Shown: piece after piece, positions 32,683 to 52,743 of the stretch
Numbering within the stretch: position 1 is the first letter of the stretch
Layout of the letters: the number at the start of each line of letters is the position of its first letter
Source: a virus
Lineage: Duplodnaviria; Caudoviricetes
Length of the DNA stretch: 64,000 nt
Direction: 5' to 3' (one strand)
IMG/VR virus record: IMGVR_UViG_3300025849_003344
Notes under the pieces: model-generated
What the model was told of the DNA's origin: nothing
Database searches by the model: none
The model's input: the letters and a program-made list of their open reading frames with translations, nothing else
Position numbers and translations under genes: made by a program

Positions 32683-34494
32683 TTATTCGTTAGGAACTTT
32701 GATTAGCTTACCGTGTTCTGGCAAATACATATATTCAATATCTGATTTAACAAGAGTCATAATAGCATCATCGATTGTCTCAACGAGTGGATCTCCGCCC
32801 AGGTTAAAACTGGTATTGAACACAATGGGAACACCAGTCTTTTCTTTAAACGCTTTAATTAGTTTATAGTATAGAGGATTCTGTTCTTCAGTTACAGTCT
32901 GAATTCGACATGTTCCATCAACGTGGATAATAGAAGGAATCTTTTCTTCAATACCAGGTTGACAGTTGACAGCATACATCATATGTGGTGTCTCATCCAT
33001 ACCACGAAGATCAAACCATTCGTGAACATCTTCAGCTAGAATGGATCCAGCAAACGGTCTAAAATATTCACGGTCCTTAACTAGATTAACATAATCTTTA
33101 CCATCTTCAAAAGTTGGATCGAAAAGAATAGACCTATTACCTAATGCACGTGGCCCATTTTCTGAACGACCTTGATAGAATGTGACAATGTTCTTATCTG
33201 TCATTAGATCTACAACGTCTGTTTCAGTAGCATCTGTCACTTCAGCTTCTTCATATTTTGAAACAGCATTCATAACATCATCGGTAGTATATTGATGATC
33301 TGGGCCAAGATATAGAGTGTCTAGCTTACGGTTAGTTTCATCATCTGTACGAGCGTGCCAGTACATAAGTGCAGCGCCCATAGCGGTACCAGCATCATTT
33401 GAAATTGGTTCAACATAAATGTTAATACCTTCATCCTTTAGAGCTTCAAGGTAGTGGTAGTTGGCTACGCAATTAAGACCATATCCACCAGAAATCACTA
33501 CGTTGTTTTGACCAGACATTTCAACAGCTTTGCGAATAAGCTTGACCATCTCATCTTGAGTCTGAGTTTGAATAGCATACGCCATATCACGACGACAGGT
33601 TAGCTTAGTAGCATCTCCTTGCACATTTTCCCAATCTTCTTGTGATGCTTGAAAGAAGTCATAAAAACCTTCATTTACAAAAGCTCCATTAGGAACATTG
33701 GGAATAAACATATTACGATCAAACACACCTGGAACCGGCGAGCGTGGATCAAACAGATTTTTCAAGTTTTCATTTTCTGATCCATATGGAAAAAGACCCA
33801 TTGTCTTTCCAGCTTCAATTGGTTGCCATCCACAATATTGTGTTACAGCCTCATAGGCTTTAGTCAAGCCCCCTCGGTCAGTAATCATAGCATCAAATTG
33901 GCCTTCTTCGCCAAACATCTCACTATCAAGTTTGGTCATCGTGCCAACAAGCGGATCTCTACAACCTAAATGCTTATATAAAGTTTTAAAAGCTGCAGGA
34001 TATTCACAGTTAATAATTGATTCATATTCCCAAATAGCAATCCCGCCACCTTGGGGATTGGAAATAGGAATCACCGAACCTGCGCCATCAGCAATTAGAG
34101 CTACAGCTTCATCAAACGGTGAGCGATAGAATGCTATAGCAGCATGTAGCTTGTGATGCATAATAGACATATCAATTACTTGCGGGTGATTTGGGCCTCT
34201 AGCGTGACGATCGATTAGACCTAGTTTGCGCGACAGGCCAGTATATACATCATCTCCACTAAAGTCAACTTTACCCGCAGTTTCATGCAACGATTGGGTG
34301 TGAGCAATTACCAGATAATCAAGCTTATCTGTATAATCGAGAATCTTAACAATACCTGCATATGGCCCACCATCATATTTTGCACGTGAAAGGCGTTCTT
34401 CTTCAATAGAGAATACAATCTCGCCATTTTTCAGAAGGCAGACTCCAGCATTGTGACCTCGAGCAATACCTGCAATCCATACATCATTTTCCAT
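32683..34494 (-). CDS. Full-length O-carbamoyltransferase (NodU/CmcH/TobZ family)
   Basis: GHNAGVCLL, EEERLSRAK, HHKLHAA, AGKTMGL, SGGYGLNCVAN, GPRALGNRSIL, REYFRPFA, NTSFNLGG. Confidence 0.93.
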   Translation of the reverse strand: MENDVWIAGIARGHNAGVCLLKNGEIVFSIEEERLSRAKYDGGPYAGIVKILDYTDKLDYLVIAHTQSLHETAGKVDFSGDDVYTGLSRKLGLIDRHARGPNHPQVIDMSIMHHKLHAAIAFYRSPFDEAVALIADGAGSVIPISNPQGGGIAIWEYESIINCEYPAAFKTLYKHLGCRDPLVGTMTKLDSEMFGEEGQFDAMITDRGGLTKAYEAVTQYCGWQPIEAGKTMGLFPYGSENENLKNLFDPRSPVPGVFDRNMFIPNVPNGAFVNEGFYDFFQASQEDWENVQGDATKLTCRRDMAYAIQTQTQDEMVKLIRKAVEMSGQNNVVISGGYGLNCVANYHYLEALKDEGINIYVEPISNDAGTAMGAALMYWHARTDDETNRKLDTLYLGPDHQYTTDDVMNAVSKYEEAEVTDATETDVVDLMTDKNIVTFYQGRSENGPRALGNRSILFDPTFEDGKDYVNLVKDREYFRPFAGSILAEDVHEWFDLRGMDETPHMMYAVNCQPGIEEKIPSIIHVDGTCRIQTVTEEQNPLYYKLIKAFKEKTGVPIVFNTSFNLGGDPLVETIDDAIMTLVKSDIEYMYLPEHGKLIKVPNE

Positions 34495-35446
34495 TCTTAG
34501 CACCTTTGCTCACAACAATATCCAATTCTTTAGCAATTTCATCAACCGCTTTATCAGAAAGCATCATAACTCCTTCATGTGATCTTCCAATTTCTTCTTC
34601 AAAAGAAATACGGATCGGATCATATCGACGTTTACCTGCTCCCAAGTCTAACACTTGAAATATATCATTGTCATCATAGCTTACATTTTCTGGGTATGTT
34701 GCGCCAACGACTGTAACTGCTGGCGTTTCTAAAGAGTACGCGAAATGCTGACCCACGCTATCACAACCAAGAAAACCATCAGCGGCTTTAATTGCACTTG
34801 CCCAAATCCGCAAGGGCGCGCCTTCTGGTTGAGCAACAGCCTCGGTAATACCAAACTGTGAAAAGTCTGTAGGGAACTCACTCATAAGAACAATAGCATA
34901 TTTCTTTTGTAACTTCTTAATAAGTTTTACAGTATCACTCACTGAGAAACTCCGCCCGCCACTATCTATTAGTTGTTGACCTTTGTTTCCCATAGGCTGA
35001 GTACTACGACCATATGGTTGAAATACAATTACCTTTTGCTTTTGAGTTTTTTCTTTTACTTCATCAATGATATCTTTTCCACTGATGAGTTCGTCAGCCC
35101 AAAGATGAAGGTTTGGTGCTGGAAGATCTCGAACACCCTTATTATTAATTTGAATATCAAACGCCTGCGCTAGGCTAGCTTTTTGATTATAATACTCCCA
35201 CACTCGATATGGTTCGGTAGACACACAAGTTCGGTTTTTAATCTTATCTTCAAAAAGTCCTTTATGCCAGTTATCAAAGGCGCGCCTATGTAAGGTTGGA
35301 TGACCCTTGTACATGTCCATGCCACCTTCACAGACAATGATAAAATCATCATCTGGATTGTCTACTTCATATTTTTCTAAAGCTGGAATTGAGCAGACGT
35401 GACGTCCTGCTCCACCGTTCACGAAGAACGCGGTTGATCTTGTCAT
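34484..35446 (-). CDS. GT9-like (ADP-heptose) glycosyltransferase
   Basis: N-terminal GGAGR motif, VIVFQPYG, FLGCDSVGQHFAY..TPAVTV GT-B signature; next to the heptose genes. Confidence 0.7.
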   Translation of the reverse strand: MTRSTAFFVNGGAGRHVCSIPALEKYEVDNPDDDFIIVCEGGMDMYKGHPTLHRRAFDNWHKGLFEDKIKNRTCVSTEPYRVWEYYNQKASLAQAFDIQINNKGVRDLPAPNLHLWADELISGKDIIDEVKEKTQKQKVIVFQPYGRSTQPMGNKGQQLIDSGGRSFSVSDTVKLIKKLQKKYAIVLMSEFPTDFSQFGITEAVAQPEGAPLRIWASAIKAADGFLGCDSVGQHFAYSLETPAVTVVGATYPENVSYDDNDIFQVLDLGAGKRRYDPIRISFEEEIGRSHEGVMMLSDKAVDEIAKELDIVVSKGAKNGK

Positions 35447-35515
35447 TTTGCACCTCACAAGAATAAATTATAAATGAATGATTAATTAATCATCATGTCT
35501 TATATATACATGATT

Positions 35516-35551: not shown

Positions 35552-36238
35552 TTATGCGCTGTCGTTAGCTGCCGCAAGAGAGGCTACAAGAGAATCGGAA
35601 TCTCCAGGAGTTAGCCTAAACCCTACCTCGTGCGGAAGTAATCCAGCGGTTTGCCAAGCATCGACTTTATTTTCAGCTTCCGTTTTACACGAATTATATG
35701 CAGCGACTATGTCGGAATCAGCACCTGCTGAATCGTTTTCTGCTAACCACGTATTAATAGAGTTAACCACAGCATCTGCCTGATTAGCTATACCGCTCCA
35801 CGTCATCCAAGTCGTATGCCATGGATAAGGTTTAACCCATGACAAAGTTTCTTCATTCCACCGCATAGCATCTGCTTGATATGCTTTATGAGGTGGAAGG
35901 GGCCATGGATACGAATACGTGACACCATCTGGACCAGTTTTTACTTTTTGAGGAAGATCACTAATATCTGAATCTCTCATTCCCCAAAGAATAGAGGCTT
36001 CCAGCGGATTACCCAATGCATTCAATAGAAGGCATTGGTCATGGTCATTAGCATCTTCTGCATTCCATGCATCCAGCGTTGTTTCATCTACCGATTGAAT
36101 CATGCCATTATCTGATAGGTGAACGTGAAGATATTTTGGCCCGTGATATGTAAAGCTAGCTGAGGAATCATTTTCTGCCTCTTGTAGCGTATAATCGTCG
36201 GGTACTTTATACGTAAAAGTTTTTGTTACTCTAGACAT
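35552..36238 (-). CDS. Putative tail-fibre assembly or associated protein
   Basis: Last gene of the fibre operon; Trp/Pro-rich (YPWPLPP, PYPW); seven DS motifs. Confidence 0.5.
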   Translation of the reverse strand: MSRVTKTFTYKVPDDYTLQEAENDSSASFTYHGPKYLHVHLSDNGMIQSVDETTLDAWNAEDANDHDQCLLLNALGNPLEASILWGMRDSDISDLPQKVKTGPDGVTYSYPWPLPPHKAYQADAMRWNEETLSWVKPYPWHTTWMTWSGIANQADAVVNSINTWLAENDSAGADSDIVAAYNSCKTEAENKVDAWQTAGLLPHEVGFRLTPGDSDSLVASLAAANDSA

Positions 36239-36247
36239 TTTATTTCC

Positions 36248-37288
36248 TTATGAATAGCTTATTCTTATCATTCCGGGACCACCACGGGAACCACAGCAAC
36301 AGGTACCACCGCATGTAGCAGGTGTAAACCCACCTTGACCTACAGCTTGCTGGTTTGGCGCGCCCGTCGCAATAATACCTGATCCAACCATCATACATTG
36401 AAAGTAGTTGTGCACGCCGCCTATCGTATTACACCATTTAATTGCAACAAGACCACCATTTACTGAAGGTTTTTCAATATGACCCATTACAGGCAACTTA
36501 AAAAGGCCACCGGGGTAGGGAACAAATTCTTTATCGCCGCAACGCGACGCGTCAATGCCGGACGATGTCCCACAACATGATGTTTGATGGCATGCGTATA
36601 TACCCTTACTTCCCCCATCAGCACCATAGTATTTTGCTGGAGCGAATACATCGTTATCACTATCTGTCGTGGATCTGCCTAACATACAATCCATTCTAAC
36701 TGTAACGCAAGCAAAGCAGGTATTTGCGGTATGATACCCTTGACCATAAGTTGACGATGCCCAACCACAACAGACAGCAGCTCCAGGGTTTCCGCCCTCG
36801 GCGCAAAGATTGTCGAGGCCTGTTCCTGTAACATATGTTTTCATCCCCCGCGTACCGCGGCTAACAAATCCTAAGCCTTGGTCAGTTAACACTGTTGTGC
36901 CATCAGCGCAGAATGTGCGTGTGCAACAGTGTCTTTCTACACCATTAAAACACAAGGTGTATACGTCACCTGGAGTAACATCTACGGCTTTATAGGCATA
37001 AGCTCCAGATCCTCCACCCAAACCCTGTGAGCAGAGATTGGATCCAGCACCCATGCCGCCGCCACCCCACAGGTGAAATGTTGCTCTGCTAGTTCCAACT
37101 GGAACTTCCCATTTATACTTAAAATAAAGTTCGGGGCAAAGTGCATCTGACCGTATCGCGGTACAATACTGTCCCTCGACGTTGCTTCTAACTTTAAAAA
37201 AGAAGTCATTCACATCATCATCAGCGGCGTTGATATTAGGTTGATCCGCAGAATATTGACCTAAGAATGATTGTAGTTGTTTAGCCAT
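36248..37288 (-). CDS. Cys/Gly-rich adhesin-like virion protein, type C copy 2
   Basis: MAKQLQSF, FHLWGGGG, GAYAYK, NLCAEGG, TCGGTCCCG. Confidence 0.6.
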   Translation of the reverse strand: MAKQLQSFLGQYSADQPNINAADDDVNDFFFKVRSNVEGQYCTAIRSDALCPELYFKYKWEVPVGTSRATFHLWGGGGMGAGSNLCSQGLGGGSGAYAYKAVDVTPGDVYTLCFNGVERHCCTRTFCADGTTVLTDQGLGFVSRGTRGMKTYVTGTGLDNLCAEGGNPGAAVCCGWASSTYGQGYHTANTCFACVTVRMDCMLGRSTTDSDNDVFAPAKYYGADGGSKGIYACHQTSCCGTSSGIDASRCGDKEFVPYPGGLFKLPVMGHIEKPSVNGGLVAIKWCNTIGGVHNYFQCMMVGSGIIATGAPNQQAVGQGGFTPATCGGTCCCGSRGGPGMIRISYS

Positions 37289-38289
37289 TATGCTTCATCC
37301 TCATGAAATCTAATTATTTGCAGCGGGGAGGATCCAGGGGCGCCGCAGCAGCACGCGCCACCACACGTTTGGGCTGATGGAAGGCTCATCCCCTGCATCA
37401 TATAACCTGAATACTCCGACCGACCACCATAATCGCAACAGTATGTGTTCCGATGAGAGAACCCACCCATTCCTTGCTCGCAGAAATCAGTCATTCTTAT
37501 CATTACTGAACCACTTCTATAACCAGATTGCTTCCAGTTACCAAATGAAGACCACATGGGTTTTCCACAAATGCCGCTGTCACAGCGGTTAATACACGAT
37601 CCAGATTCGAAGCCATAGTTAGAAGACGCCTTACAATACACACAATCGTACCCATAATCTTCAGCGGGCGTTGGGTTTTCCAAACAGGATGAGTGGCAAG
37701 TCGCCATAGTACATCCACGACAAGATGGATGAAGCGCAGCACCGCTTGAGCCAAGTGCGCCATAATTACAGCATGGATTATAACCATAAGTACAGACACC
37801 TGCAGCGCCACATCCGCTTTCAGTCTTTATACAGTTAATAATTGTTCCACCAGCACCACCAGATCTATGCTGTACATTAGTATGACCGCTACATTTTCCA
37901 TTGCACTCCGGGGTGCAACAACCGCAACCACTGGAAACGCAAATGAATAGATGATCACTATCTCCAACCCATTGAGGAGAATATTTAGCAACGCCGCCAG
38001 ACCTACCAGATGAGCTTTGTTGGCAACAGCATGTGCCGCCTGATGGCCCACCGCCGCCAAACATATATATGTCGGTGCCACCATCTTCGAGTTTACCCTT
38101 TTTCATACTCCCGCCGCAAAACGTATGGCGCTTCCTGTCCATATGATAGTGTTGGTGGCCATAGTCTGTACCGCCGGCGCAGCCATTCATATCTGGTCCG
38201 TACGGACCAGTATATACTATAGTCTTATATTTTAAGTCAGACGTTGCCGTTATAGACCCAGGTTGAAATGTCGATAAATTTTTTGCCAT
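37288..38289 (-). CDS. Cys/Gly-rich adhesin-like virion protein, type B copy 2
   Basis: MAKNLSTFQPG, GGTCCCQ; 32 Cys in 333 aa by hand count. Confidence 0.6.
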   Translation of the reverse strand: MAKNLSTFQPGSITATSDLKYKTIVYTGPYGPDMNGCAGGTDYGHQHYHMDRKRHTFCGGSMKKGKLEDGGTDIYMFGGGGPSGGTCCCQQSSSGRSGGVAKYSPQWVGDSDHLFICVSSGCGCCTPECNGKCSGHTNVQHRSGGAGGTIINCIKTESGCGAAGVCTYGYNPCCNYGALGSSGAALHPSCRGCTMATCHSSCLENPTPAEDYGYDCVYCKASSNYGFESGSCINRCDSGICGKPMWSSFGNWKQSGYRSGSVMIRMTDFCEQGMGGFSHRNTYCCDYGGRSEYSGYMMQGMSLPSAQTCGGACCCGAPGSSPLQIIRFHEDEA

Positions 38290-39206
38290 TAGGTTCCATC
38301 CTCGAAAGTATTACAGCAGCTGTATGTTATCCTAATTCTTCCAGGACTCCAATATCCGCCACAAGCCGAGTTTCCACCGCAATGTGCTACACCTGGTTTA
38401 CCCCAACCTGCCATAAACACTTTGCCGCTTTCGGAGTTGCAAGAACCATAGAAGTCTGAAAGAATACCATCAGTAGGGCCTGATCCCCCACAACATATAT
38501 TAGTACTACTCAGCTGAAGATGTCCTATTAAATGGCCACCTCTTTTATTCCAAAGCCCACCTGGATAAGGTATACCTTGTCTATAATAGTTATAATTCGT
38601 TTGATCAAGGGCTGAGTCGATCAACTGAATAAATCCAGGATGCCCTCTAGTGCCTCCGTCAGCGCCAAAATATCTTGCTCCCTCATTTTCACTATCTTGG
38701 AACATATATTGTTTTGATCCATCTGCTGGCGCAAGATTGCAACATACTACAGAAGATGAGCATCCGTGTTCAGCACAGAAATTTGTCAACCCTGTGCCAG
38801 TAATCCAAGTGTGGCGATTGGTATTGTTACATGGCGTTGATTTTGTCGTATCAGATCCTCCATTTGGAGGATAACAGCAATATTGCCAAGCAGTATGAGT
38901 TCTATAACATGTGTTTGGAGTAACAGTCAAATATTTATATGCATACGCCCCAGCCGCGGCAGGTCCAGAGTACATACAATTGCATCCGCCACCCGGCGCG
39001 CCACCTGTGCCCCATATCTCAAACTTTACACAGCAGATATCTGCAGGCACGCAAAAGAATTGCTCATGTGTAAAATTCACACATGACCGATCCTCGTTAA
39101 AACGTGTTCTTGGAACATAATCCCATGTACAATAAGGAACTAGACCAGCAACGTCGACCGACGATGAGCCTATAGATTTTACAAAAGTGTTTAGATTCTT
39201 AGCCAT
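38289..39206 (-). CDS. Cys/Gly-rich adhesin-like virion protein, type A copy 2
   Basis: MAKNLNTFVKS, FEIWGTGG, GAYAYK, TNFCAE, KRGGHL, GRIRITYS. Confidence 0.6.
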   Translation of the reverse strand: MAKNLNTFVKSIGSSSVDVAGLVPYCTWDYVPRTRFNEDRSCVNFTHEQFFCVPADICCVKFEIWGTGGAPGGGCNCMYSGPAAAGAYAYKYLTVTPNTCYRTHTAWQYCCYPPNGGSDTTKSTPCNNTNRHTWITGTGLTNFCAEHGCSSSVVCCNLAPADGSKQYMFQDSENEGARYFGADGGTRGHPGFIQLIDSALDQTNYNYYRQGIPYPGGLWNKRGGHLIGHLQLSSTNICCGGSGPTDGILSDFYGSCNSESGKVFMAGWGKPGVAHCGGNSACGGYWSPGRIRITYSCCNTFEDGT

Positions 39207-39214
39207 ACTAATTC

Positions 39215-40294
39215 CTATTTATACGTGATAGCCACTAGGCCCATACCACCATAATCGCCACAGCAACATGTTCCGCCACATGTCCATGAACTTGCCCCAC
39301 CAACACCTATCATAGCACCACCATTATCAAATTGATTGTTAGCTACTGTTGAGCCCATCATCATCTGCCGTTCAGCGGTACCGTGCGGCCCAAACATTCC
39401 GAAGGAGGTGTTAACGCAATTCCGATAGTGATTGCCTACATGATATCCATACTTACTATTTAGTGTAGTTCCCATCCACCATTTCCCGCCAGGCATTGCA
39501 ATCCAGTGAATAAAGCTGGATTCATTACAACAGTTAGCTTCGAAGCAGCCGCAACAACCGTGCTGCCATTCAGAATGTAGTCCTCTTGACCCGCCATCTG
39601 CTCCATAGTAACAAGCAGTTCTAAATCTAGAACTATCGCTATCGTTAGGATCTCTGTCTAACATATCACAAGCCCTAACCCTAGCATCCTGTTCGAATGT
39701 TACGCCGCGGCCACCATTGGGGCCGTCAAAAAGCCGGGCACAGCCACCTCTGATATGCGCTTGAGCCGTAAAGCCAGGATTCCCGCCTTCAGCACAAAAG
39801 TTTGTAAGACCTGGGCCAGTTACATAAGCAGTGATACCTTTACATCCTGCCATAATATAACAAGTGCAACTGGCGGCCGTGGCGTCCCAGCTTTCCGCAG
39901 CCGTTCCCGGAGGGCAACAGAAATGCGCGGCTGAGGTGGAGCAAGATAATGTTTGCACATCACCTAAGCATGAAACATATCTGTCACCTGCTGAAAACCC
40001 GCTTGTTATTTTCTTATATGCATACGCTCCAGCACCAGCGTGAAAACCTTGCATACAACAATGTGAGCCGGCTCCAACGCCTCCGCTTCCCCATGCATGG
40101 ACAGTTATTTCTGAGGTCCCCGGAGGAACTATCCAAACGTCTTTAGTCCCACCCGCATTTGCGGAAGATCCATGACGCGTGATCCAGTCCACACCGGTGC
40201 CGATTTTCTGATTAGTAAACCAATGAACTTTCACCTCGGTCTCGGCAACTTGGGAAGGTGCCAAATTAATTAGAGATTGTAATGTTTTAGCCAT
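39215..40294 (-). CDS. Cys/Gly-rich adhesin-like virion protein, type C copy 1
   Basis: MAKTLQSL, HAWGSGG, GAYAYK, TNFCAEGG, TCGGTCCCG. Confidence 0.6.
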   Translation of the reverse strand: MAKTLQSLINLAPSQVAETEVKVHWFTNQKIGTGVDWITRHGSSANAGGTKDVWIVPPGTSEITVHAWGSGGVGAGSHCCMQGFHAGAGAYAYKKITSGFSAGDRYVSCLGDVQTLSCSTSAAHFCCPPGTAAESWDATAASCTCYIMAGCKGITAYVTGPGLTNFCAEGGNPGFTAQAHIRGGCARLFDGPNGGRGVTFEQDARVRACDMLDRDPNDSDSSRFRTACYYGADGGSRGLHSEWQHGCCGCFEANCCNESSFIHWIAMPGGKWWMGTTLNSKYGYHVGNHYRNCVNTSFGMFGPHGTAERQMMMGSTVANNQFDNGGAMIGVGGASSWTCGGTCCCGDYGGMGLVAITYK

Positions 40295-40315
40295 ATTATC
40301 CTACTTTTCCTAGCA

Positions 40316-41260
40316 CTATTTATACCAAATAGTAATGAATGCAGGCTGCCCCGGCCCACCGCAATAACAGTTGCCACCCGTGGCAACCGCCGGAAATCCG
40401 CCAGTTCCGGCCGTACAAATTCCGCCCATACCAAAGGATGGGTTTGTTCCCCCAAACATTCTCATGAAACCACATGTTGTGGTCCCGCCATGTTGGTTGT
40501 CTGTTTTGGTCATCGGCGCGCCGGCATAGTGTGATAAATTAGTTTTAAAATGATTGAGATCTGCAAAATGACTAGTTCCGCACAACGTATTTGGCGGGCT
40601 CGCACAACATGCTGTAACGACAAAACCTGGGCGTGATTTAAATACGTTTGCGTCTGAATCAAAAATAGCTCCTTTAGTAGTGGCTATAGAGCATGCCTGA
40701 CACCCATATACGCTTATATTGGATATCTGATTGTCTGGCTCCCAACATCTACCCGCGGTCGTGCTGCTGATATCACCCCAACAGTGGCAGAAACAATTGC
40801 TTTGGTTTTGCATATTACAGCATGATCTCGTGCATGCCGCGCCATCAGCCTTAAAAACAAGCTCACTATTAGTATCGTTATATATTTCAATCTGGCAGCC
40901 TTGTTGACCATTATCAGTTGCAACACAACAGCCACCGGCGCGGATACAGAAGCACCATTTTTCATCTGCTACAACATCTACATCCAATATTCCTGAAGAA
41001 CCTGAATTGCCAGGCACACTGGTCTGGCAACAGTTAGTACCACCTGTACTAGATCCGTTAGCCACATAAAAGAATTTAGCTTGTGTGATTCCGGTAGGAA
41101 CTGTCCACTTATATCCATGCCCACCATAATTAGGGGTACGCGGGCCTACACCGTTGTGACATCCATTCCCAGCTCTAAACGTCTGAACCTGCCAGCTGCC
41201 AAGACCTAGAGTTACCTCGCCAGCCATGCCCGGCGCAAATTGTGTTATATTTTTCGCCAT
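40316..41260 (-). CDS. Cys/Gly-rich adhesin-like virion protein, type B copy 1
   Basis: MAKNITQFAPG, GGTNCCQ, GGNCYCG. Confidence 0.6.
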   Translation of the reverse strand: MAKNITQFAPGMAGEVTLGLGSWQVQTFRAGNGCHNGVGPRTPNYGGHGYKWTVPTGITQAKFFYVANGSSTGGTNCCQTSVPGNSGSSGILDVDVVADEKWCFCIRAGGCCVATDNGQQGCQIEIYNDTNSELVFKADGAACTRSCCNMQNQSNCFCHCWGDISSTTAGRCWEPDNQISNISVYGCQACSIATTKGAIFDSDANVFKSRPGFVVTACCASPPNTLCGTSHFADLNHFKTNLSHYAGAPMTKTDNQHGGTTTCGFMRMFGGTNPSFGMGGICTAGTGGFPAVATGGNCYCGGPGQPAFITIWYK

Positions 41261-41268
41261 AGTTCCTA

Positions 41269-42177
41269 CTAACTGAATAAAATTCTAATTTTGCCCGCTT
41301 CGTTTAGGTGCCCGCATTTTGTGGTGCCGGCGCAAATTGTGTACCCAGGCGAGCCCATTCCAGCCATCTCCCAATTTTGTGGGATAGCGGATTCAAGGCC
41401 CGTTGCGATGCACATCCCCTGGTCCATATTCATACCAAGCATGCGGTACATGATCTGTGCTGAAACATCGTTACAACAAGCTGCAACTTGAATATGACCA
41501 CCTAATTTACCATAAACATTACATCCTGGTAATGGTGCCCAAAACCGAAAATTACAAAGGGATGTAGCTATACCTAGACTATTAGTTGTTAAGTACCCCT
41601 TTTCGCCACGAAGTCCATTTTCTGCTCCATAGTAACAAGCCCTATTAGGTCCTCCAGCAGAATCACCGTTTCCGTAATATGGAGTTGCACTATCAAATAA
41701 ACTAGCAGCAAAACCAAGTGTATCGCAACACACGTATCCGGAATGATAGCCAGATTGTGCACAAAAATTAGTTAAGCCAGTTCCTATAACATACGTGTCG
41801 CCATGCGCGGAATCTCTAATATCTCCAGCTAACCAAGTAGCATCATAGGTATGGCAACATCTTTTCACTCCGCCATGAATCGCGTAACAGTCGCCTGGAG
41901 TAACACTTACGGTTTTATATGCATAAGCTCCAGAGCTACTAGGAACACCTACACCACATCCAGTTCCGCCGCCCACATATCCGCCAGCCCCCCAAATATG
42001 AAATGTTGCTGTTGAAATTCCAGGTGGAACGCACCAAGATGTCCAATTCGCGCCATGATTACACGCGCACTGCCCCATGGCGGTTGGAACCCAGTCAAAG
42101 ATATGTTGGTCTTTAAATGGCAATGGGTTCCCCCCAGAAGAGAAGCTTTTTACATATCTTGATAAATTTTTAGCCAT
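41269..42177 (-). CDS. Cys/Gly-rich adhesin-like virion protein, type A copy 1
   Basis: MAKNLSRYVKS, FHIWGAGG, GAYAYK, TNFCAQ, KLGGHI, GKIRILFS. Confidence 0.6.
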   Translation of the reverse strand: MAKNLSRYVKSFSSGGNPLPFKDQHIFDWVPTAMGQCACNHGANWTSWCVPPGISTATFHIWGAGGYVGGGTGCGVGVPSSSGAYAYKTVSVTPGDCYAIHGGVKRCCHTYDATWLAGDIRDSAHGDTYVIGTGLTNFCAQSGYHSGYVCCDTLGFAASLFDSATPYYGNGDSAGGPNRACYYGAENGLRGEKGYLTTNSLGIATSLCNFRFWAPLPGCNVYGKLGGHIQVAACCNDVSAQIMYRMLGMNMDQGMCIATGLESAIPQNWEMAGMGSPGYTICAGTTKCGHLNEAGKIRILFS

Positions 42178-42203: not shown

Positions 42204-42629
42204 TTATCCTTGAACGACAAATTGCCATCCATAAGTATCACCAGACCATACAATCTGTACAGCAATACCTTGAGTATTAATTAGAATATCACTGTCCTGA
42301 CCAAGAATTTTTTCACCGGTTGCAGGAGAAATTGTAAAGTTATTTGTTGCAAAGTTTTGCGCAAGGTCAACAAAAGTAATTTTACCATCGCCAGCAACGT
42401 TTCCACTCACTGATGGAAGTGTTGCAGTAACTGCTGCAGAAGATGTGTTTACAAAGTGTCCACCATAACTATCAGCGTTAAAGTCAACAGCATCTGTTGA
42501 CCATGAAGTCGATTGTTCGATACCATTTGCTGCTTTAGTAAGATACGCTAATTGTTCTGGGGTCGCAGAAGTAATAGACGTATTAATCTTATCAAGCAAC
42601 GCATTTCTGACTGTATCAATACTTGCCAT
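42204..42629 (-). CDS. Small tail-fibre module protein
   Basis: GHFVNTSSAAVTATLP...ITFVD....FATNNFTI...E.I.G....IL.....QIVWSG..YGW, a domain recalled from marine phage fibres. Confidence 0.6.
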   Translation of the reverse strand: MASIDTVRNALLDKINTSITSATPEQLAYLTKAANGIEQSTSWSTDAVDFNADSYGGHFVNTSSAAVTATLPSVSGNVAGDGKITFVDLAQNFATNNFTISPATGEKILGQDSDILINTQGIAVQIVWSGDTYGWQFVVQG

Positions 42630-42661: not shown

Positions 42662-45600
42662 TTATTTAAGATTTTTACCATCATTTTTTGTTACATCATA
42701 GATATTAAATCCCATGAATAGCTCTGTGGCTAATGCACCGGATTTAGCGTTTGCGGGTAAGGACAATGAGGATGCTCCTTCAAGCTTTGTATCCACGTAT
42801 GTCTTAACTGCTGACTCTGTAGGTACGGCCGTGGTTGAATTACCAGATAATGTGCCGTCCGTTGAGAATTCGTTAATAGAAGCACCTAGCTGAGCACCAA
42901 TCGAACCAAGTCTCAATGATGTCAAACCTGAAAGGTCAAATGCCGATGCATCCAATGTTGCTCGACCAGTCGCCTGATCAATTCTAAAGTAATTACCAAC
43001 TCTAAAGTTACCAGATTGGTCAGTAGATACGTAGTAAACGCGGCCTTGAGCCAATTCAACCACTTCATTAGCTTGTGCTGGTTGTTGGTTTGGATCTCCA
43101 GGATAATTTGTTTGTGTTTTATTACCAGTACCAATATTCAAGAAGTCATGACCTGTAAGTCTTGCTTGTGAATAGTTATATCTGATTTTTACTTGTTGTC
43201 CTTCAGCAGCAGGTCTTTGTGAAGTTTTCTCTTGAGCAAAGACTAACAGAACATTACCAGTAGCCGAGTCGTAATCAGTGACAGTTTGAATAACGTAGCT
43301 TCCGATTGAATCGTAACCTGAATCTCCTAAGTTTCCAACAAATTCTAATGATCCACCTGGTCTTGGCTTAGCGGCAGTAAATCCGTCAAACGCCATAGTA
43401 AATCCATATTGATCGTGGGCAGTATCGCTATCTGATAGAATTGCTGATACAACTCCTGCGCTATCTTCAATAGAGTCACCATCAATAAATCCAGTGCCGA
43501 TAATGTTATCGATAATAATTTTATTTGCACCTGGCTGATGATTAATTACAGTAGCTCTTGGCCCAACCGCAAAGATTTGTGCCGAGTCAAGGTCATCACC
43601 TGAGTCAGTAAGTCTTAGAGTACCACCAGATGTATATACTGAATATGACGTAGCATTTACGTCCGATGGATCTACAATCGTAAATTCACCATGTAGTGTT
43701 CCAGTTCCGCTATTTGCATAGTGAAGAGTATTTGGAGCAGAGCTGTCAACTTCAATAACCATACGGTTACCTGCTGTTGCTCTTGAATTTCTAACGCCAG
43801 TTGTATATTCGCCGCTATAAGAAACTGCTGACCATCCAGTCGAATCTGTTGTAGTTAGATAGAATGCGCCACTAACTGATGAATCAATATCAAATAGATA
43901 TTTAGAACCACGATAAAGTGTAGCATTCGGTTCAACTGAAGCCGAATATGATTGTCCGCCAATTGTACCAGTCAAAGTATAGTCTGCACCGGTTTTTGCA
44001 ACCGTAATATGACTATGTTCAGCTTCACGCAAATTAATGGTTGAAGACGTATGATCATGAACACTAAAGTGCTGGTTATTAACCTGCGTCATTCCGCCAA
44101 CGTTTTGAATGCGTAGAAGATCCCAGCTATCAAACGAATGAGATGCTACAGTTACAGTCATTGGATTTGAACGAGTAATATCTGTAATACCAACGTTCGT
44201 GACCGATCTTCCACCAATCGATGTACCATCTGCCGGATTTGACAATCCAGTATTAGTGTAAAGATCCATTGTATTTGAATCAATTATATCGGCATAATAT
44301 TCTGTAGTTTCATCAAATGAAGCCCAAGAAGCAGGAAGTTGAGGATCTACTCGAATGAGATGACCGTCTGAAAGACCGTGAGGTTCTTTTGTACCAATAC
44401 GAATGGGGCTAGATCTAGTTAAGAATGATACTTGTTTTAAACGATCTGGAGATTTAATAATTGCATTGTTTGCAAAGTCTCCTCCTAGATTTGTACCATC
44501 CTGATAGTCTAAGCTATAACCACGAACATTACCGTTGTTTGTTGTTTCTGTAGAATCGAATCCGTATGAAACAGCGCCATAACGACCGTAAGAGTTGTTA
44601 CCGTTTAGAGCACGAATAAATCCACCGTCCGATGTTGCATATCCAAAATCGCAATAATAAGTAAAGCATGATACAATCTCAGCTTTACCATTTCTTCGTA
44701 CCCAGAAACCAACACCGCCGTCATGAATTTGTGTATATGTGTGGAATACCATTGATCCATTGTTATTTGGATCGTTATTCAAACCACCATCAACAATTGC
44801 TCCAATACCTCCGGTTGAAAAGGCAGAACATTCTTTGATATAAGGAGATTTTGTAATTACCGCAGCTGGATCTAGTCGTAAAAATACACCACCGACTGTA
44901 GCTGTTTCAATGTGATCTGGTCCATTAGAATCTGGAATAAATCCAGTTAGTCCAGATAAAACAAGCTCTTTCATTAAGACACCATTGTTCAATAAGAACA
45001 TGGTTTCTTGTTCATCGCCAGCTTGTGGTTTAATAAAGCAGTTACGTTGGCCAGCGCCCATCACAGTAACATTTGTTGGAATTGTAATAGGAAGCTGTTC
45101 TTCGTAAGATCCTTCGGAAATATGAACCACCGCAGTTGAATCTACATTTTTATTTGCAGTAATGTGATCCATTGCATAACGTACAGATGCAAATGGTTTT
45201 TGTTTTGATACGCCTGAAGACGCACTATCGATTCCATCCGGAGATATATAAAAAGTATTTGGTGAGTTATCAGTATAGTCTAACAAAAAGCCTGACGCAT
45301 CGTTTTTAACAACAATAGATTTACCAACATCACCCGCTGTAATTGTAGGAAGAGCTCCTGAACCACCAGCAGCAAAGACTGTCCATCTACCGTCTGACTC
45401 ATCATTAGCAAAGTTAGACGTCGACGTATGAGTATTTTGCGCAATGTACGATGATGTACCAGATTGAATAATATCGTTTACGACATAAAGGGTGGATTGT
45501 CCCCAAGTTCCTCTATTTCGAACACCTTCAGCAAACGCTACAATTTTACTTGAACTTAAGTCGGTTGCAAAAGTTCCTGAAGTGTGAGCTTGTTCTACGA

Positions 45601-46612
45601 TATATGTTGTACCACCGTATTTTACCAACGTGCCAGGCAAATAAGTTTGCGCTGTCGCCCATGTTCCACCATTACTAACACTATCAATTAATATGCGCCA
45701 TGCAGTTGGCGTAGCGGATGGGGTAGAACCTGTAGAAGCTAACAAGGCAAGATAAAGTTGACCACCAGCAAGAACTACTTCACCTGGATAATATTTTCTT
45801 GCGGCGTCATAATTACCTACAAATGATTGACCATCTAGGAAAGATTCCCAATAAATGGTGTTAATTGGATGAGTTCCGGTTATATCGCCTTTAGCTTTAT
45901 ATAGATTTCCACCAAATCTTACGATATCATTTTTGACATATGCAGTAGCGCTATCAAAAGAATCTTTTAAATCAAAGCCACCAACAAATTGTTCCCAGTT
46001 TGGACTACCTTGGCTCGGAGCCGTACCGCTAACATCTTGTAAAGCCTTATAAGTTGTACCACCGTAAGTTACAATATCGTCTTTTTGATATGAAGCGGCA
46101 GCGCTATATGTTCCTTCAACCTGAAGACCTGATGAAAACACATCCCATGCAGAATCTACCGCGCTTGGTACTTCAGAAGTAGTATCTCTTTTGGCAACAT
46201 AAGAGGTACCGCCGTGAGTAACAATATCAGATAGTTGATAAGCTGATGCGCTATCCCATACACCTTCATATTGAAGACCGTCAACAAACTTTGAATAATG
46301 CGATAAGCTAGGAGGTGTTACCCCGGTAACCGTATCGGCAGTAACAACATAAACGGTACCACCATATGAAAAGCCGTCGCCAATCACGTATGTTGTAGCA
46401 GCGTTATAGACTCCTTCAAAATTGAAGCCTTCCATCATCAGATCCCAATACGTAGTATTGGTTGGTACGTTACCTGATAACGCCGTACCGTATTTGTATA
46501 CGTATACGTTACCACCGTATTTTACTACGTCGTTCCATTCGTATACCTTAGAGCCACTATAAACTCCTTGATATTCGAATCTGATTTTACCTAAATCAAT
46601 TATTGTTGCCAT
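42662..46612 (-). CDS. Large multidomain tail-fibre or spike protein (CBM-like repeats plus a pectin-lyase-like region)
   Basis: Eight W/Y-x4-Y-x2-D-x-V-x-YGG-x-Y repeats; FYISPDG..KPFASV beta-helix entry; C-terminal SARLTGHDFLNIGTG and FSTDGTLSGNS. Confidence 0.7.
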   Translation of the reverse strand: MATIIDLGKIRFEYQGVYSGSKVYEWNDVVKYGGNVYVYKYGTALSGNVPTNTTYWDLMMEGFNFEGVYNAATTYVIGDGFSYGGTVYVVTADTVTGVTPPSLSHYSKFVDGLQYEGVWDSASAYQLSDIVTHGGTSYVAKRDTTSEVPSAVDSAWDVFSSGLQVEGTYSAAASYQKDDIVTYGGTTYKALQDVSGTAPSQGSPNWEQFVGGFDLKDSFDSATAYVKNDIVRFGGNLYKAKGDITGTHPINTIYWESFLDGQSFVGNYDAARKYYPGEVVLAGGQLYLALLASTGSTPSATPTAWRILIDSVSNGGTWATAQTYLPGTLVKYGGTTYIVEQAHTSGTFATDLSSSKIVAFAEGVRNRGTWGQSTLYVVNDIIQSGTSSYIAQNTHTSTSNFANDESDGRWTVFAAGGSGALPTITAGDVGKSIVVKNDASGFLLDYTDNSPNTFYISPDGIDSASSGVSKQKPFASVRYAMDHITANKNVDSTAVVHISEGSYEEQLPITIPTNVTVMGAGQRNCFIKPQAGDEQETMFLLNNGVLMKELVLSGLTGFIPDSNGPDHIETATVGGVFLRLDPAAVITKSPYIKECSAFSTGGIGAIVDGGLNNDPNNNGSMVFHTYTQIHDGGVGFWVRRNGKAEIVSCFTYYCDFGYATSDGGFIRALNGNNSYGRYGAVSYGFDSTETTNNGNVRGYSLDYQDGTNLGGDFANNAIIKSPDRLKQVSFLTRSSPIRIGTKEPHGLSDGHLIRVDPQLPASWASFDETTEYYADIIDSNTMDLYTNTGLSNPADGTSIGGRSVTNVGITDITRSNPMTVTVASHSFDSWDLLRIQNVGGMTQVNNQHFSVHDHTSSTINLREAEHSHITVAKTGADYTLTGTIGGQSYSASVEPNATLYRGSKYLFDIDSSVSGAFYLTTTDSTGWSAVSYSGEYTTGVRNSRATAGNRMVIEVDSSAPNTLHYANSGTGTLHGEFTIVDPSDVNATSYSVYTSGGTLRLTDSGDDLDSAQIFAVGPRATVINHQPGANKIIIDNIIGTGFIDGDSIEDSAGVVSAILSDSDTAHDQYGFTMAFDGFTAAKPRPGGSLEFVGNLGDSGYDSIGSYVIQTVTDYDSATGNVLLVFAQEKTSQRPAAEGQQVKIRYNYSQARLTGHDFLNIGTGNKTQTNYPGDPNQQPAQANEVVELAQGRVYYVSTDQSGNFRVGNYFRIDQATGRATLDASAFDLSGLTSLRLGSIGAQLGASINEFSTDGTLSGNSTTAVPTESAVKTYVDTKLEGASSLSLPANAKSGALATELFMGFNIYDVTKNDGKNLK
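45380..46580 (-). repeat. Eight tandem repeats of about 47 aa, CBM5/12-like (coordinates approximate)
   Basis: e.g. WDSASAYQLSDIVTHGGTSY, YSAAASYQKDDIVTYGGTTY, FDSATAYVKNDIVRFGGNLY. Confidence 0.7.
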
Positions 46613-47308: not shown

Positions 47309-47316
47309 TATTTATA
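47309..47316 (-). promoter_or_regulatory. Late promoter for the 47283-35552 fibre operon
   Basis: Exact intergenic TATAAATA. Confidence 0.85.
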
Positions 47317-47334: not shown

Positions 47335-50300
47335 TTACATATTAATGTAACCAAATAATCCGCCGCCGGCACCACCGCCACCGCCACCGAGAGTTGATGC
47401 TAAAGTGTCTGCTCTAACTTTTCTAAGTTGACCACCAGTTGTTCCACTATATACTAAGAAATATTCTGACGTATTTACCCAAGAATCTGCAAAGACTTCT
47501 TCATGCCTTGTAATATGGCGTTCATGAAGTTTAAATCCTCCGACTGAACCATAAGCAGAATCAAATGTAAGATCTCCAAGGCTGTCTTCATTGTCTTTAA
47601 AGTGTTGGAAAAATTCTGCTTCAGATGGTCCATTATAGGTTAGCGAACCAGCAATAGAATCGTAAATTAGTGATCCGTCTCCGCCACCGTCTATAACGCT
47701 TATAGCTGATCTTGCTCTAGCCGCAGTAAAGTATTGAGTACCGCTAGCCGAATCAGCTGATGGATCTTCGGGTAAATTAGATGTATTATGATTAGATAAG
47801 TCTGAAACTTGACCCGTAACATTGCCTGTTACATTACCAACAATATTACCATAACCAGTACCAAACTGAATATTAGCATCTGTATATGATGAATCTGAAG
47901 TATTGATAGAAGCATCGATAGTCGATGTGTATCCATCAAAGAATTTAAATCTTCCGTCAGCGTTATCTCTAAACGCACCAGCTCTTGCAAATGGACCATT
48001 CGGTGGATTATAATTACCAATCAGACCAAGATCAAGGTTAGAAGGAGCAGCGGTACCACTCCATCTTTCATTTACATCATGACCTGTTGCAGCTTCAAAC
48101 TCAAAGCTAATTCCGTGTCTAAGATCACCAGTTAGTCCGTTAGTTGATAGGTTCCACGAAGAAGGACCGCCATCAGATTCAAAGTTTAGGAGAGTTGTAA
48201 AATCTGAATCAAAAGACCAAACAAGTGTGTCACCTGACGAGTCAGCGCTAGTTATTTTTAAGTAATAAGCAACATCAGAATCACCTGTGTAAGTACCCAC
48301 TAACGACAGATCATCAAGTCCAGAATCTAGCGCATTGGCTGTGACAGTATCACCAGCCGCAAGGAATACAAAGTTATCGGAAACTGCTAAGTTAGCAACC
48401 TGAGTTTGTGTCTCAGTTCCAAGTAAGTTAAGGTTACCAGCGATAGTAACATCAGCATCAAATCGCGCGTTACCTTGGACTCTAATATTCTCAAAGACTT
48501 CAGCTTTTAGTCCAACCTGAATACAACCACCAACATTGCCACCTGTTGCCGAATCAGCTACAAGAACAACACCAACTTCAAAAGGATAGTTAGGATATTG
48601 GGGATTGTAATTAACGAGCTCACCAGCAGAGTCTGGAGAAACGTGTACAACGTCGCCAGGATTAAATGCGGAAGTATTTAATCCGCCATATAAACCACGA
48701 ACTGTGACATAACCGTATGTGCCACTGGGGATTGCATGAGAAGTTAAACCTTGCGTTTCATAAACCGTTTCAAAATTATTTGATTGAGCTAATGCAATGG
48801 TTGGAAAATCGTTTGTAGCACCAGTAATATAGACCGCTTTGCCTTTTGCGATTGCGGTACCAGTGTTGTTATAAACCCTAACAACTTCATCCTGACCAAG
48901 TTTGATATTCATAGTTGCGTTAGAATATGTTAAGGCGTCAGGCCCTTGGAAATAGAATAAGTTACCTTCTCTAAATGATGGAAGGTTATTAGGAACATCT
49001 ACATCTGTAAAGCGAGTAGTATCAAACGCAATACGATCGGCTTCTACTATTGGAATATCTGCGTATGAATCAACTTTTAATTGCTCAGCAACTCTTAACT
49101 GATTAAAAAATTCTGAGTAACGGTCAATAAGAATTCGACCTGAAGTTGAATCTTCAGTTATTACTCTACCAATATGAAACGGATATGCTGATGCAGAACT
49201 AGGTTCTGTTGTAGTAAACCCACCATTTGAATCTGTAGCAAGATACAGCTCTGAACCTTCGCTTAGTCCAGTAGTATTAATTCCATTAACAAAACCGCTT
49301 TGAGTAACATAACCAAAACCGCCAGGCTGAATCGTAGATGTAAGAACACCATCAACTCTTGCTGTTGAAGCAGCATCGGCTTTTGATAGTCGTATAGTCG
49401 GCGTATTACCCATTCGACCGTCAAAGTATACAGCACGTCCATTATAGAAAGGTGTACCAGTATCGTTGTAAACTCTTACAACAAATTCTTGACCGACGTT
49501 AATTGTAACATCATTTTTATCATTATAGTATGAGATAGCCTTTGCATCGCTATCATAAAATACACGGCCTTCTTTCCAAGGCGCTGCGTAACTTACGTCG
49601 TAATCAATATGCTTAACAGCAGCAGAACTTAAAGTAATATCGGCTGTCGAATCAATTCTAAACGTTGCCGTTGAATCTTCATAATCTAAACCTAAGCCGG
49701 CATTAAAGTCTTTACGTGCTAAAATGCGCTGATTTAAGTCGCCAGTAGCAGTTGATAATGTAAGAATCCCACTGGAAGAGTCAAAAGATACACTATCTAA
49801 AGTTGCAATAGCAATGTTTTTAATACTATCAACGATTCCAAGAGAATCAACGGTAATTTGCGGAACAAGGGTTGGGCTACCATATATTCCGGCATTTGCA
49901 CCAGATGATGGAATTCTAAATATTCCGTTTATACTATCATATGCTAGTCCAGGACCAGGAGATAGTATTGACTTCATCTGAGCCGAGTCAGGTAGTTCAT
50001 CTATCCGCTTATTAATAGAATCAACGGCCGGACCAGTTAAATTGCCAGCAACTGCTAATCCGGTATTAAGTTCAAATTGATCGGTATTTTTATCATACAG
50101 CATAAATTTGATGTTGCTGCCACCGCCAAGAAGAAAACCGCCGCCGTTTAAATTATCAACATTACTATCATTTACTGAAAAGATAATTCTATTATCAGTG
50201 GCATGCAAAAACGGTGCATCAAGTAAAATTCTACTAGATTTTAGATTAATTTCTCCAGAAGAAATGTTTAGTCTATCTGTACTATCAATTGAAGAAATAC

Positions 50301-52392: not shown

Positions 52393-52743
52393 TTATGTTA
52401 CGCTAGGCGTAACGGTAATTGAGCCTTCAAGGATTCTTTCAACCACTGTACTTGCATCACTATCAACGAAAGAAATCTCTACATCATATACATATCTACC
52501 AGCCTTGAGAGTGCTAGTTTGCGTATTACTCAAAGTAAGGTTAACAACACCTGCAGTAGCAGGAGCTTCAACTTCTGTAGTAAATGAAACCGCCTCGCTG
52601 TCAGAAGTATTATAACTTTTCTTTAACTTGCCAGCAACAGTATGGTTCGTAAGATCTTTTTCGTTACCCTGATTATCCTCTAACTCGAGTTTCAGGGTAA
52701 TGTCAGATCCTTTGTCTATTGACAGTTCTTCATATTGGGCCAT
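52393..52743 (-). CDS. BppU-N-like fibre attachment or baseplate protein
   Basis: IDKGSD...DLTNHTVAGKLKK...GVVNLTL....T..LKAGRYVYDVEI...RILEG.ITV.PSVT. Confidence 0.7.
   Translation of the reverse strand: MAQYEELSIDKGSDITLKLELEDNQGNEKDLTNHTVAGKLKKSYNTSDSEAVSFTTEVEAPATAGVVNLTLSNTQTSTLKAGRYVYDVEISFVDSDASTVVERILEGSITVTPSVT

Follow-up and report, generated by a model that had tools for sequence, protein, structure and literature searches.

The 64,000-nucleotide (nt) window analysed here, the whole stretch taken from IMG/VR record IMGVR_UViG_3300025849_003344, belongs to an uncultured T4-like marine myovirus, the nearest cultured relatives of which are the cyanomyoviruses S-CAM1, S-CAM3 and S-SSM7. 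Positions 36248-42177 are filled by six tightly packed open reading frames (ORFs), all on the minus strand and encoding proteins of 302-359 amino acids (aa), named in transcription order A1, B1, C1, A2, B2 and C2. Gaps of 8, 21 and 8 nt separate the first four genes, and at the last two junctions stop and start codons overlap as TAATG, one of these overlaps being shared by the end of A2 and the beginning of B2; such close junctions are compatible with equimolar synthesis. All six proteins start with MAK[NTQ][LI], whereas none of the other window ORFs of at least 150 aa has a MAK start. This common start was already recognised in the initial annotation of the DNA, which also delimited the array correctly. 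The motifs by which that annotation grouped the genes into classes A, B and C, searched as regular expressions, each occur only in the pair to which they were assigned, although the class C pattern C[DM]..[DG]R...DSD is exact in C1 and one residue shorter in C2.

As judged by sequence comparison, the six proteins are divergent relatives of PF21722 (Gly_rich_2) and of phrog_4205, to which no function has been assigned. Matches to phrog_4205 were obtained for five proteins, B2 lacking any phrog or Pfam match, while C2 alone matches PF21722, below the gathering cut-off (E 0.081). Membership of PF21722 is transitive only, through the 21 of 69 sequences in the family alignment (the six window proteins included) that match it, with a best E-value of 1.5e-11. 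Annotation of the PF21722 type is common among metagenomic relatives, and many structural neighbours in BFVD are labelled as glycine-rich domain-containing.

The fold of these proteins is that of phage fibre heads. The AlphaFold2 model of C2, built on the family alignment, has a predicted local distance difference test score (pLDDT) of 75 and a predicted template modelling score (pTM) of 0.80. In a search of 48,161 PDB chains that was independent of Foldseek, the top rank went to the Pam3 fibre 7YPX_A (Z 13.9, root-mean-square deviation (rmsd) 3.2 over 191 residues), followed by the Bxb1 tail-tip protein 9D93_Qa (Z 11.6) and the ALK glycine-rich domain (Z 7.4-8.6), with the next unrelated chain at 4.4; the Foldseek ranking concurs, with an E-value of 1.6e-05 for the Pam3 fibre. 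B2 is the most divergent of the six and its model is poor (pLDDT 54, pTM 0.60), with matches to the Pam3 fibre at Z 12.4 (rmsd 3.4, 184 residues), Bxb1 at 10.6, ALK at 7.3-7.7 and the next unrelated chain at 3.5. Both models contain a predicted TNF-like beta-sandwich, followed by and interleaved with a glycine-rich lattice domain. The profile of the family alignment had no match among PDB sequences at E <=1, hence the tie to solved structures is by fold only. The proteins were initially likened to gp38-type adhesins, which identified the right kind of fibre tip, but the closer fold is that of Pam3 gp24, with gp38 near but inexact.

Paralogue pairs, array size and the three-chain model

A maximum-likelihood tree (IQ-TREE) was built from the proteins of the window, two other six-gene phages (L003 and L006), S-CAM1 and S-SSM7. 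It places positions 1 and 4 of the array in clade A (support 95/97), positions 2 and 5 in clade B (100/98), and positions 3 and 6 in clade C (88/91), with every one of the six positions forming a separate orthologue clade. Phylogeny was the check that the initial annotation had set for its order of A-B-C-A-B-C, and it recovered all three pairs. By pairwise BLAST the C1-C2 pair is clear, A1-A2 fair and B1-B2 weak, the best hit of B2 being B1 and that of B1 being C2. Residues 8-12, directly after the shared MAKN[LI], are class-specific and conserved both within paralogue pairs and between orthologues, reading [FY]VKS in class A, F[AQ]PG in class B, and LINLAP or FLGQY in class C. Metagenomic contigs with the same six-gene array and the same flanks carry C2 proteins with identities of 72% (L003-L005) and 43% (L006-L008). 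The phylogenetic evidence indicates that duplication of the triplet predates the divergence of these six-gene phages, all of which have retained the six genes since.

The size of the array is nearly constant among relatives. In 79 further loci taken from viral contigs, all ORFs were searched with the family hidden Markov model, and 71 arrays were complete: 60 with three members, nine with six, one with four, and one (L023) scored as two through an artefact of the ORF-overlap filter, and corrected to three. With this correction, and with near-duplicates removed, the 43 non-redundant complete arrays divide into 38 of three members, four of six and one of four, such that 42 of 43 have three or six. 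The apparent five-member array of L011 has in fact six members, the last cut by the end of the contig, and the seeming exceptions L032 and L081 are likewise arrays cut by contig ends. The only complete four-member array (L012:6164-10777) runs A, B, B', C, with proteins of 317, 454, 436 and 312 aa, the middle two being B-like and about 120 aa above the usual length.

The order of the array is as constant as its size. In a tree of 234 very divergent sequences (FastTree, midpoint root), position-specific clades span as many as 41 loci, without any permutation of the order. The N-terminal motif is common within an array and varies by lineage, being MAKNL in the window, MSSLRD, MANLRG or MPNSNL in the S-CAM1 type, and MA.Y.S in the S-SSM7 type. 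Each major lineage of this tree (six-gene, S-CAM1 and S-SSM7 type) also seems to hold its own A-, B- and C-like diversification, a detail that is not relied upon here; it would mean either repeated triplication or concerted evolution within arrays. Relatives at the protein level occur in S-CAM1, S-CAM3, S-SSM7, S-SSM6a, Sf-FS3 and one single-cell virus, and a megablast search of the region against 50,697 phage records gave no match. Receptor-binding genes are usually among the phage genes most freely gained, lost and shuffled. The fixed number and order found here are unlike this pattern, and hence point to one assembly needing one chain of each kind.

Such an assembly was modelled as A1+B1+C1, each chain with its own alignment, in three runs alongside three controls. 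The interaction prediction score from aligned errors (ipSAE) was 0.70 (0.57, 0.70 and 0.75 in the individual runs), against 0.05 for the best of the controls; the mark set for this test is reached by 58 of 80 solved complexes and by 2 of 110 mismatched pairs. The runs had 34% or more of their contacts in common, the pLDDT of the partners was at least 57, and each run gave 73-127 confident contacts. These contacts place the N-terminal arm of C1 (residues 18-29) on residues 221-230 of A1, and the arm of B1 (residues 22-31) against C1, in the manner of a ring with exchanged arms.

The reading favoured here, with a probability of roughly 0.55, is that the six genes encode two heterotrimeric receptor-binding heads carried on the distal fibre. 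It is supported by the three-or-six rule, the fixed order and the predicted three-chain complex. The two heterotrimers proposed in the initial annotation have in this way gained two independent lines of support, from the array sizes and from the complex that passes the test, though each of these is also compatible with six homotrimers. What the data establish is the homology, the fold, the pairing into A, B and C, the three-or-six rule and the conservation of the flanking genes; the heterotrimer, the docking site, the role as chaperone and the chemistry of the cysteines are interpretation.

Genes around the array and cysteine content

The array sits in the variable host recognition cluster, with the large structural genes on one side and the neck genes on the other (PMC7029224). 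The minus-strand order begins with a TATAAATA motif, and continues with two small genes (112 and 104 aa), the 1316-aa fibre gene, the 141-aa gene, the six heads, the 228-aa gene, a GT9-like gene and a carbamoyltransferase gene (Table 1).

Table 1. Positions in the window of the six head genes and of the elements considered with them.
Feature	Position	Strand	Basis
A1, 302 aa, class A, first triplet	41269-42177	minus	ORF; phrog_4205 E 1.1e-23; A2 is sister in tree; chain 1 of modelled trimer
B1, 314 aa, class B, first triplet	40316-41260	minus	ORF; phrog_4205 E 2e-05; clade with B2, 100/98; chain 2 of modelled trimer
C1, 359 aa, class C, first triplet	39215-40294	minus	ORF; phrog_4205 E 7.9e-31; reciprocal best BLAST hit with C2; partner chain in complex model
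A2, 305 aa, class A, second triplet	38289-39206	minus	ORF; phrog_4205 E 4.2e-27; tree
B2, 333 aa, class B, second triplet, richest in cysteine (9.6%)	37288-38289	minus	ORF; fold match of AlphaFold2 model
C2, 346 aa, class C, second triplet	36248-37288	minus	phrog_4205 E 4.1e-34; PF21722 13.3 bits (cut-off 24.3); AlphaFold2 model
1316-aa long tail-fibre protein with CBM5/12 repeats, likely shaft bearing the 141-aa module	42662-46612	minus	phrog_9851 tail fiber protein E 1.3e-220; PF02839 CBM_5_12 E 1.1e-22; syntenic with S-CAM1 and S-SSM7 fibres
141-aa module, candidate distal-fibre adaptor for the heads	42204-42629	minus	match to S-SSM7 fibre C-terminus; position
228-aa gene, likely tail-fibre assembly chaperone (predicted)	35552-36238	minus	phrog_9740; conserved downstream position; PF16778 in relatives
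TATAAATA, T4-type late-promoter motif	47309-47316	minus	pattern search; upstream of first gene of co-directional block (112 aa, 104 aa, fibre, 141 aa, six heads)

Residues 42-136 of the 141-aa protein share 40% identity (E 9e-17) with the last 95 residues (1383-1473) of the 1477-aa S-SSM7 fibre (L002:1758-6191), while the 1316-aa fibre of the window has no segment of this type; hence the 141-aa gene looks like a C-terminal fibre module that has been split off, 1316 and 141 together being close to 1477. In 78 of 80 loci a homologue, either as an ORF or as the C-terminus of a fibre, immediately precedes the array, and given this constant place beside the heads, the 141-aa protein is the foremost candidate for the platform on which they would dock. 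It is weakly matched by PF07880 (T4_gp9_10_N; 18.4 bits, cut-off 25), and also by the N-terminal parts of many tailspikes. Domains like that of gp10 act as branching points for the tailspikes of phages CBA120 and G7C.

On the other side of the array, an ORF follows in 84 of 88 sources, each of these ORFs being identified by jackhmmer as a homologue of the 228-aa protein of the window. Most have an N-terminal FTY.LPD.Y, with LPN in S-SSM7-type copies, and members from the S-SSM7 lineage match PF16778 (Phage_tail_APC) at 32-45 bits (cut-off 26.6) over residues 162-208. The copy in the window has no Pfam match, and is tied to the members matching PF16778 through the iterated search alone. Against the PDB, the profile of the 228-aa family gave only a marginal match (2KZ6, E 0.025), and neither Pam3 gp25 nor the tail-fibre assembly protein of Mu was matched by sequence. 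All scores in a protein-atlas look-up of the 228-aa protein were below 0.9, and its matches are treated as leads.

Late-promoter motifs of the T4 type occur 14 times in the window against 8.9 expected, which is not a significant enrichment, and a promoter role for the copy at the head of the co-directional block is suggested only by its position. B1 and C1 both end in TAT AAA TAA (Tyr-Lys-stop), which generates two further exact copies of TATAAATA, at 40317-40324 and 39216-39223 on the minus strand, 22 and 9 nt ahead of the next start codon; these may be internal late promoters, or a by-product of a conserved ...YK C-terminus. Beyond the 228-aa gene, 32683-35458 holds the GT9-like gene (weak PF01075 match, 16.6 bits; phrog_8954, E 7e-136) and a full carbamoyltransferase gene, and the same two genes follow the heads and the 228-aa gene in S-CAM1, in S-SSM7 and in six of six metagenome contigs with listed genes. 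Elsewhere in the window, a 116-aa protein (52393-52743), matching phrog_3304 ('L-shaped tail fiber protein assembly', E 3.1e-18), is encoded just upstream of a 1680-aa structural gene (47335-52377), with which it may form a second pair of fibre and chaperone.

The composition of the six head proteins sets them apart from the rest of the window. Cysteine makes up 6.0, 7.6, 6.4, 7.2, 9.6 and 6.6% of A1, B1, C1, A2, B2 and C2, a mean of 7.25% that is eleven times the 0.65% of the 26 other genes, such that the content of about 10% stated initially applies to B2 and overstates the others. There are 18-32 cysteines per chain; content is higher still in relatives with three-gene arrays (8-13%), and about 15 alignment columns are cysteine in at least 80% of 234 family members. 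Glycine amounts to 15.6% (range 14-17%), against 7.2% in the 26 other genes. The runs of CC and CCC that had been remarked upon hold up, with 26 CC dipeptides observed against 9.5 +/- 2.6 in shuffles, and CCC present in C1, twice in B2, and in C2. There is no enrichment of CxxC in the six proteins (6 observed, 10.3 +/- 2.8 in shuffles). The idea that cysteine simply replaces glycine in the lattice strands is not supported, as cysteine beside glycine is not enriched (0.146 against 0.159 +/- 0.017).

Co-occurrence of cysteines across the 234 members gave lineage-linked blocks, with no clean pairs or quartets, and did not separate disulfides from metal sites. Only one of the 65 cysteines of A1+B1+C1 lies in the confidently predicted interface, and most of the cysteines are inside the individual chains. 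The best guess at their role is intrachain disulfide stapling, after release or lysis into oxygenated seawater; alternatively, they may bind metal or be buried as free thiols. Disulfides are proven in Pam3 virions, where dithiothreitol (DTT) breaks them and releases the fibres (PMC9942802), hence disulfides in the tail of an aquatic phage have precedent, and the initial description of such cysteine density as unusual for proteins folded in a reducing cytoplasm is to be softened.

The same annotation held the array to be more GC-rich than its flanks, which is the case (45.5-47.3% against 33-42%). The excess is greatest at codon position 2 (0.555 against 0.378 in the 26 other genes), therefore most of it is due to amino-acid composition. 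However, GC is also raised at codon position 3 (0.364 against 0.256), with GGC and GGG used relatively more often for glycine, such that amino-acid composition alone is insufficient for the full excess.

Alternative assemblies and a proposed mechanism

Several observations weigh against the heterotrimeric heads. Firstly, the chains of the A1+B1+C1 complex have pLDDT values of just 57-63. Secondly, the complex test is also passed by close cousins of a true partner, and Pam3 gp24 is a solved homotrimer with this fold; hence the pass may reflect likeness only, and the model cannot separate a heterotrimer from homotrimers. Thirdly, the four members of the L012 array mean that the rule of three is not absolute. 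Fourthly, a fixed number of genes is also found for the fibre proteins gp34, gp36 and gp37 of T4, which are homotrimeric. Fifthly, Pam3 gp24 has an N-terminal helical domain of about 75 residues for docking and trimerisation, whereas only about 25 residues precede the TNF-like domain here: the alignment of C2 with 7YPX_A begins at residue 25 of the model and residue 77 of the chain, and the only helix before it in the model spans residues 2-8, at pLDDT 53-57. Sixthly, odd and even cysteine counts are about equally common in the 234 family members (111 and 123 proteins), hence some cysteines must lie outside intrachain disulfides. Finally, no virion proteomics, structural or expression data for any family member were found in the literature, the proteomics paper on S-SM1, Syn9 and S-PM2 not covering the family.

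The strongest competitor, though a somewhat improbable one, is that each of the six genes encodes its own homotrimeric mini-fibre resembling Pam3 gp24, giving six different heads, with the three of each set corresponding to three attachment sites or receptor specificities. It draws on the homotrimeric state of the closest solved relative (PMC9608196), and on the presence of the same Pam3 fibre at two different wedge sites (PMC9942802), by which several sites per baseplate are possible; the passing of the complex test by close cousins and the four-member array, which is easier to explain with independent units, can be added to these. However, independent receptor-binding proteins are usually shuffled freely, whereas these arrays number three or six in all but one of 43 cases, with a fixed order and deep position-specific clades. 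Moreover, the long N-terminal helical bundle that chiefly holds the Pam3 trimer together (PMC9608196) is absent from the heads, and the class motifs after the shared N-peptide are kept between paralogue pairs, as if each class had its own place in one assembly.

It is unlikely that the proteins act instead as monomeric adhesins in the manner of S16 gp38 or the ALK domain, with three different monomers side by side on one fibre tip and no true trimer. The TG domain of ALK is not known to be an obligate trimer, and the heads come after the fibre gene and its C-terminal module just as gp38 comes after gp37, but a tip with three-fold symmetry needs one kind of cap rather than three. Although S16 gp38 does cap the trimeric tip of gp37 (PMC9942802), it is not near the top in either fold search, where the best matches are trimeric fibre proteins, and the three-chain model gives many confident contacts in every run. 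Least probable by far is that these are not virion parts but secreted or intracellular metal-binding proteins encoded by chance among structural genes, since, for all that the CC runs and high cysteine recall metallothionein-like proteins and that the literature gave no proteomic evidence of a virion location, CxxC is not enriched, the fold is that of a phage fibre head, and nearly every relative has the genes between the fibre module and the gene with relatives bearing a fibre-chaperone domain, in one co-directional block.

In the heterotrimeric reading, each triplet would assemble into one heterotrimer, of one A, one B and one C chain, around a three-fold axis, as in C1q; it is around such an axis that TNF-like domains are usually arranged. 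The N-terminal arm of each chain (about residues 18-31) would rest on its neighbour, as modelled, and the glycine-rich domain would form a polyglycine-II lattice as in the solved relatives. The virion would carry two different heads of this kind, which the initial annotation regarded as alternatives; the age of the duplication, with retention of all six genes in every six-gene relative, is compatible with both being in use. The heads would dock through the 141-aa module by means of the N-terminal MAKN[LI] peptide common to the six, a dock that the initial annotation had plausibly proposed, while the class residues that follow it ([FY]VKS; F[AQ]PG; LINLAP or FLGQY) would determine which chain stands next to which in the ring; the shared start and the class residues fit a common dock combined with class-specific recognition of neighbours. 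The 228-aa protein would serve as a folding and assembly chaperone, like Pam3 gp25.

A bolder version can be offered only tentatively, as it is distinctly less likely than the reading from which it extends. The arrays would then give tailed phages their first known example of heterotrimeric receptor-binding heads, arranged A-B-C as in C1q on a TNF-like and glycine-lattice fold, and duplication of the set would yield either two distinct heads, or a mixing of A1/A2, B1/B2 and C1/C2 in up to eight combinations. The cysteines would be oxidised only after lysis, making a scaffold set by redox state, rigid in oxygenated seawater but perhaps loosening where the cell surface is reducing, as DTT loosens the Pam3 fibres.

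The family and fold are already known. No paper describing the triplet organisation, a possible heterotrimer, the cysteine richness, or the module of adaptor, heads and chaperone was found in the literature on PF21722, polyglycine-II adhesins, cyanophage heterotrimeric fibres and cysteine-rich cyanophage virion proteins. It is the receptor-binding proteins that determine which hosts marine T4-like phages can infect, and these phages are a major cause of death of bacteria and cyanobacteria in the ocean. Phage fibres are almost always homotrimers. If the heterotrimers are real, a head of three chains would triple the independently variable surface, and would explain the retention of exactly three (or six) paralogues, as a phage counterpart of the C1q and TNF heterotrimers. 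The locus also defines a compact and widely conserved module, in which three or six heads stand between an adaptor from the fibre C-terminus and a likely chaperone. This module is amenable to expression and structure determination, and provides a test case for how proteins with 6-13% cysteine, made in a reducing cytoplasm, fold and work outside the cell.

Comparison with known systems

Existing annotation of PF21722 and phrog_4205, from phages and giant viruses, includes neither a function nor the cysteine richness and triplet organisation that distinguish the present array. The nearest characterised system is that of Pam3 gp24 and its chaperone gp25 (7YPX, 7YFW), which shares the fold of the head, a similar size, and a myovirus of an aquatic host. 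Pam3 gp24 is a homotrimeric 'simplified tail fibre', in which an N-terminal helical baseplate dock precedes a TNF-like and glycine-rich head that is proposed to bind the host, and its glycine-rich part superposes on S16 gp38 over about 52 residues (PMC9608196); disulfides join this fibre to the wedge (PMC9942802). The chaperone gene gp25 comes directly after gp24, as a gene with chaperone-domain relatives follows the heads. However, Pam3 has a single gene and a homotrimer, whereas the arrays have three or six paralogues in fixed order, rich in cysteine.

In S16 and T2, gp38 likewise has its gene after that of the distal fibre and is a glycine-rich cap that binds the receptor, a single copy sitting on the gp37 trimer. 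Its fold comprises an N-terminal attachment domain, a middle beta-helix domain and a polyglycine-II sandwich of three layers. No gp38 chain is among the fold matches listed for the models by Foldseek or by the PDB-chain search, such that the heads are connected to gp38 indirectly, by way of the 52-residue similarity of Pam3 gp24, and gp38 differs from the heads in its middle beta-helix domain (PMC9608196). The Bxb1 tail-tip protein (9D93 chains Qa and Qb) has the same fold as the C2 and B2 models, but comes from a siphovirus of actinobacteria. The TG supradomain of ALK and LTK (7NX3, 7LIR, 7LRZ, 7LS0) has the same two-part fold (Z 7.3-8.6) in the ectodomain of an animal receptor, and none of the six proteins matches the ALK/LTK glycine-rich family PF12810 at E <=0.1.

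For the assembly of paralogous chains, the comparisons lie further afield. Lymphotoxin alpha1-beta2 (4MXW) is a solved heterotrimer of paralogous TNF-like chains, and C1q likewise consists of three paralogous chains, the genes of which stand in tandem; the heads resemble both by architectural analogy only. The weak similarity of the C2 model to C1q and TNF (Z 3.5-3.9) reflects a common beta-sandwich rather than kinship. Among phages, a parallel in organisation is Mysterious, an actinobacterial siphovirus in which the products of three tandem paralogues, gp35, gp36 and gp37, described as plain beta-sandwiches rather than glycine-rich heads, form a heterotrimeric baseplate accessory (PMC13252515).

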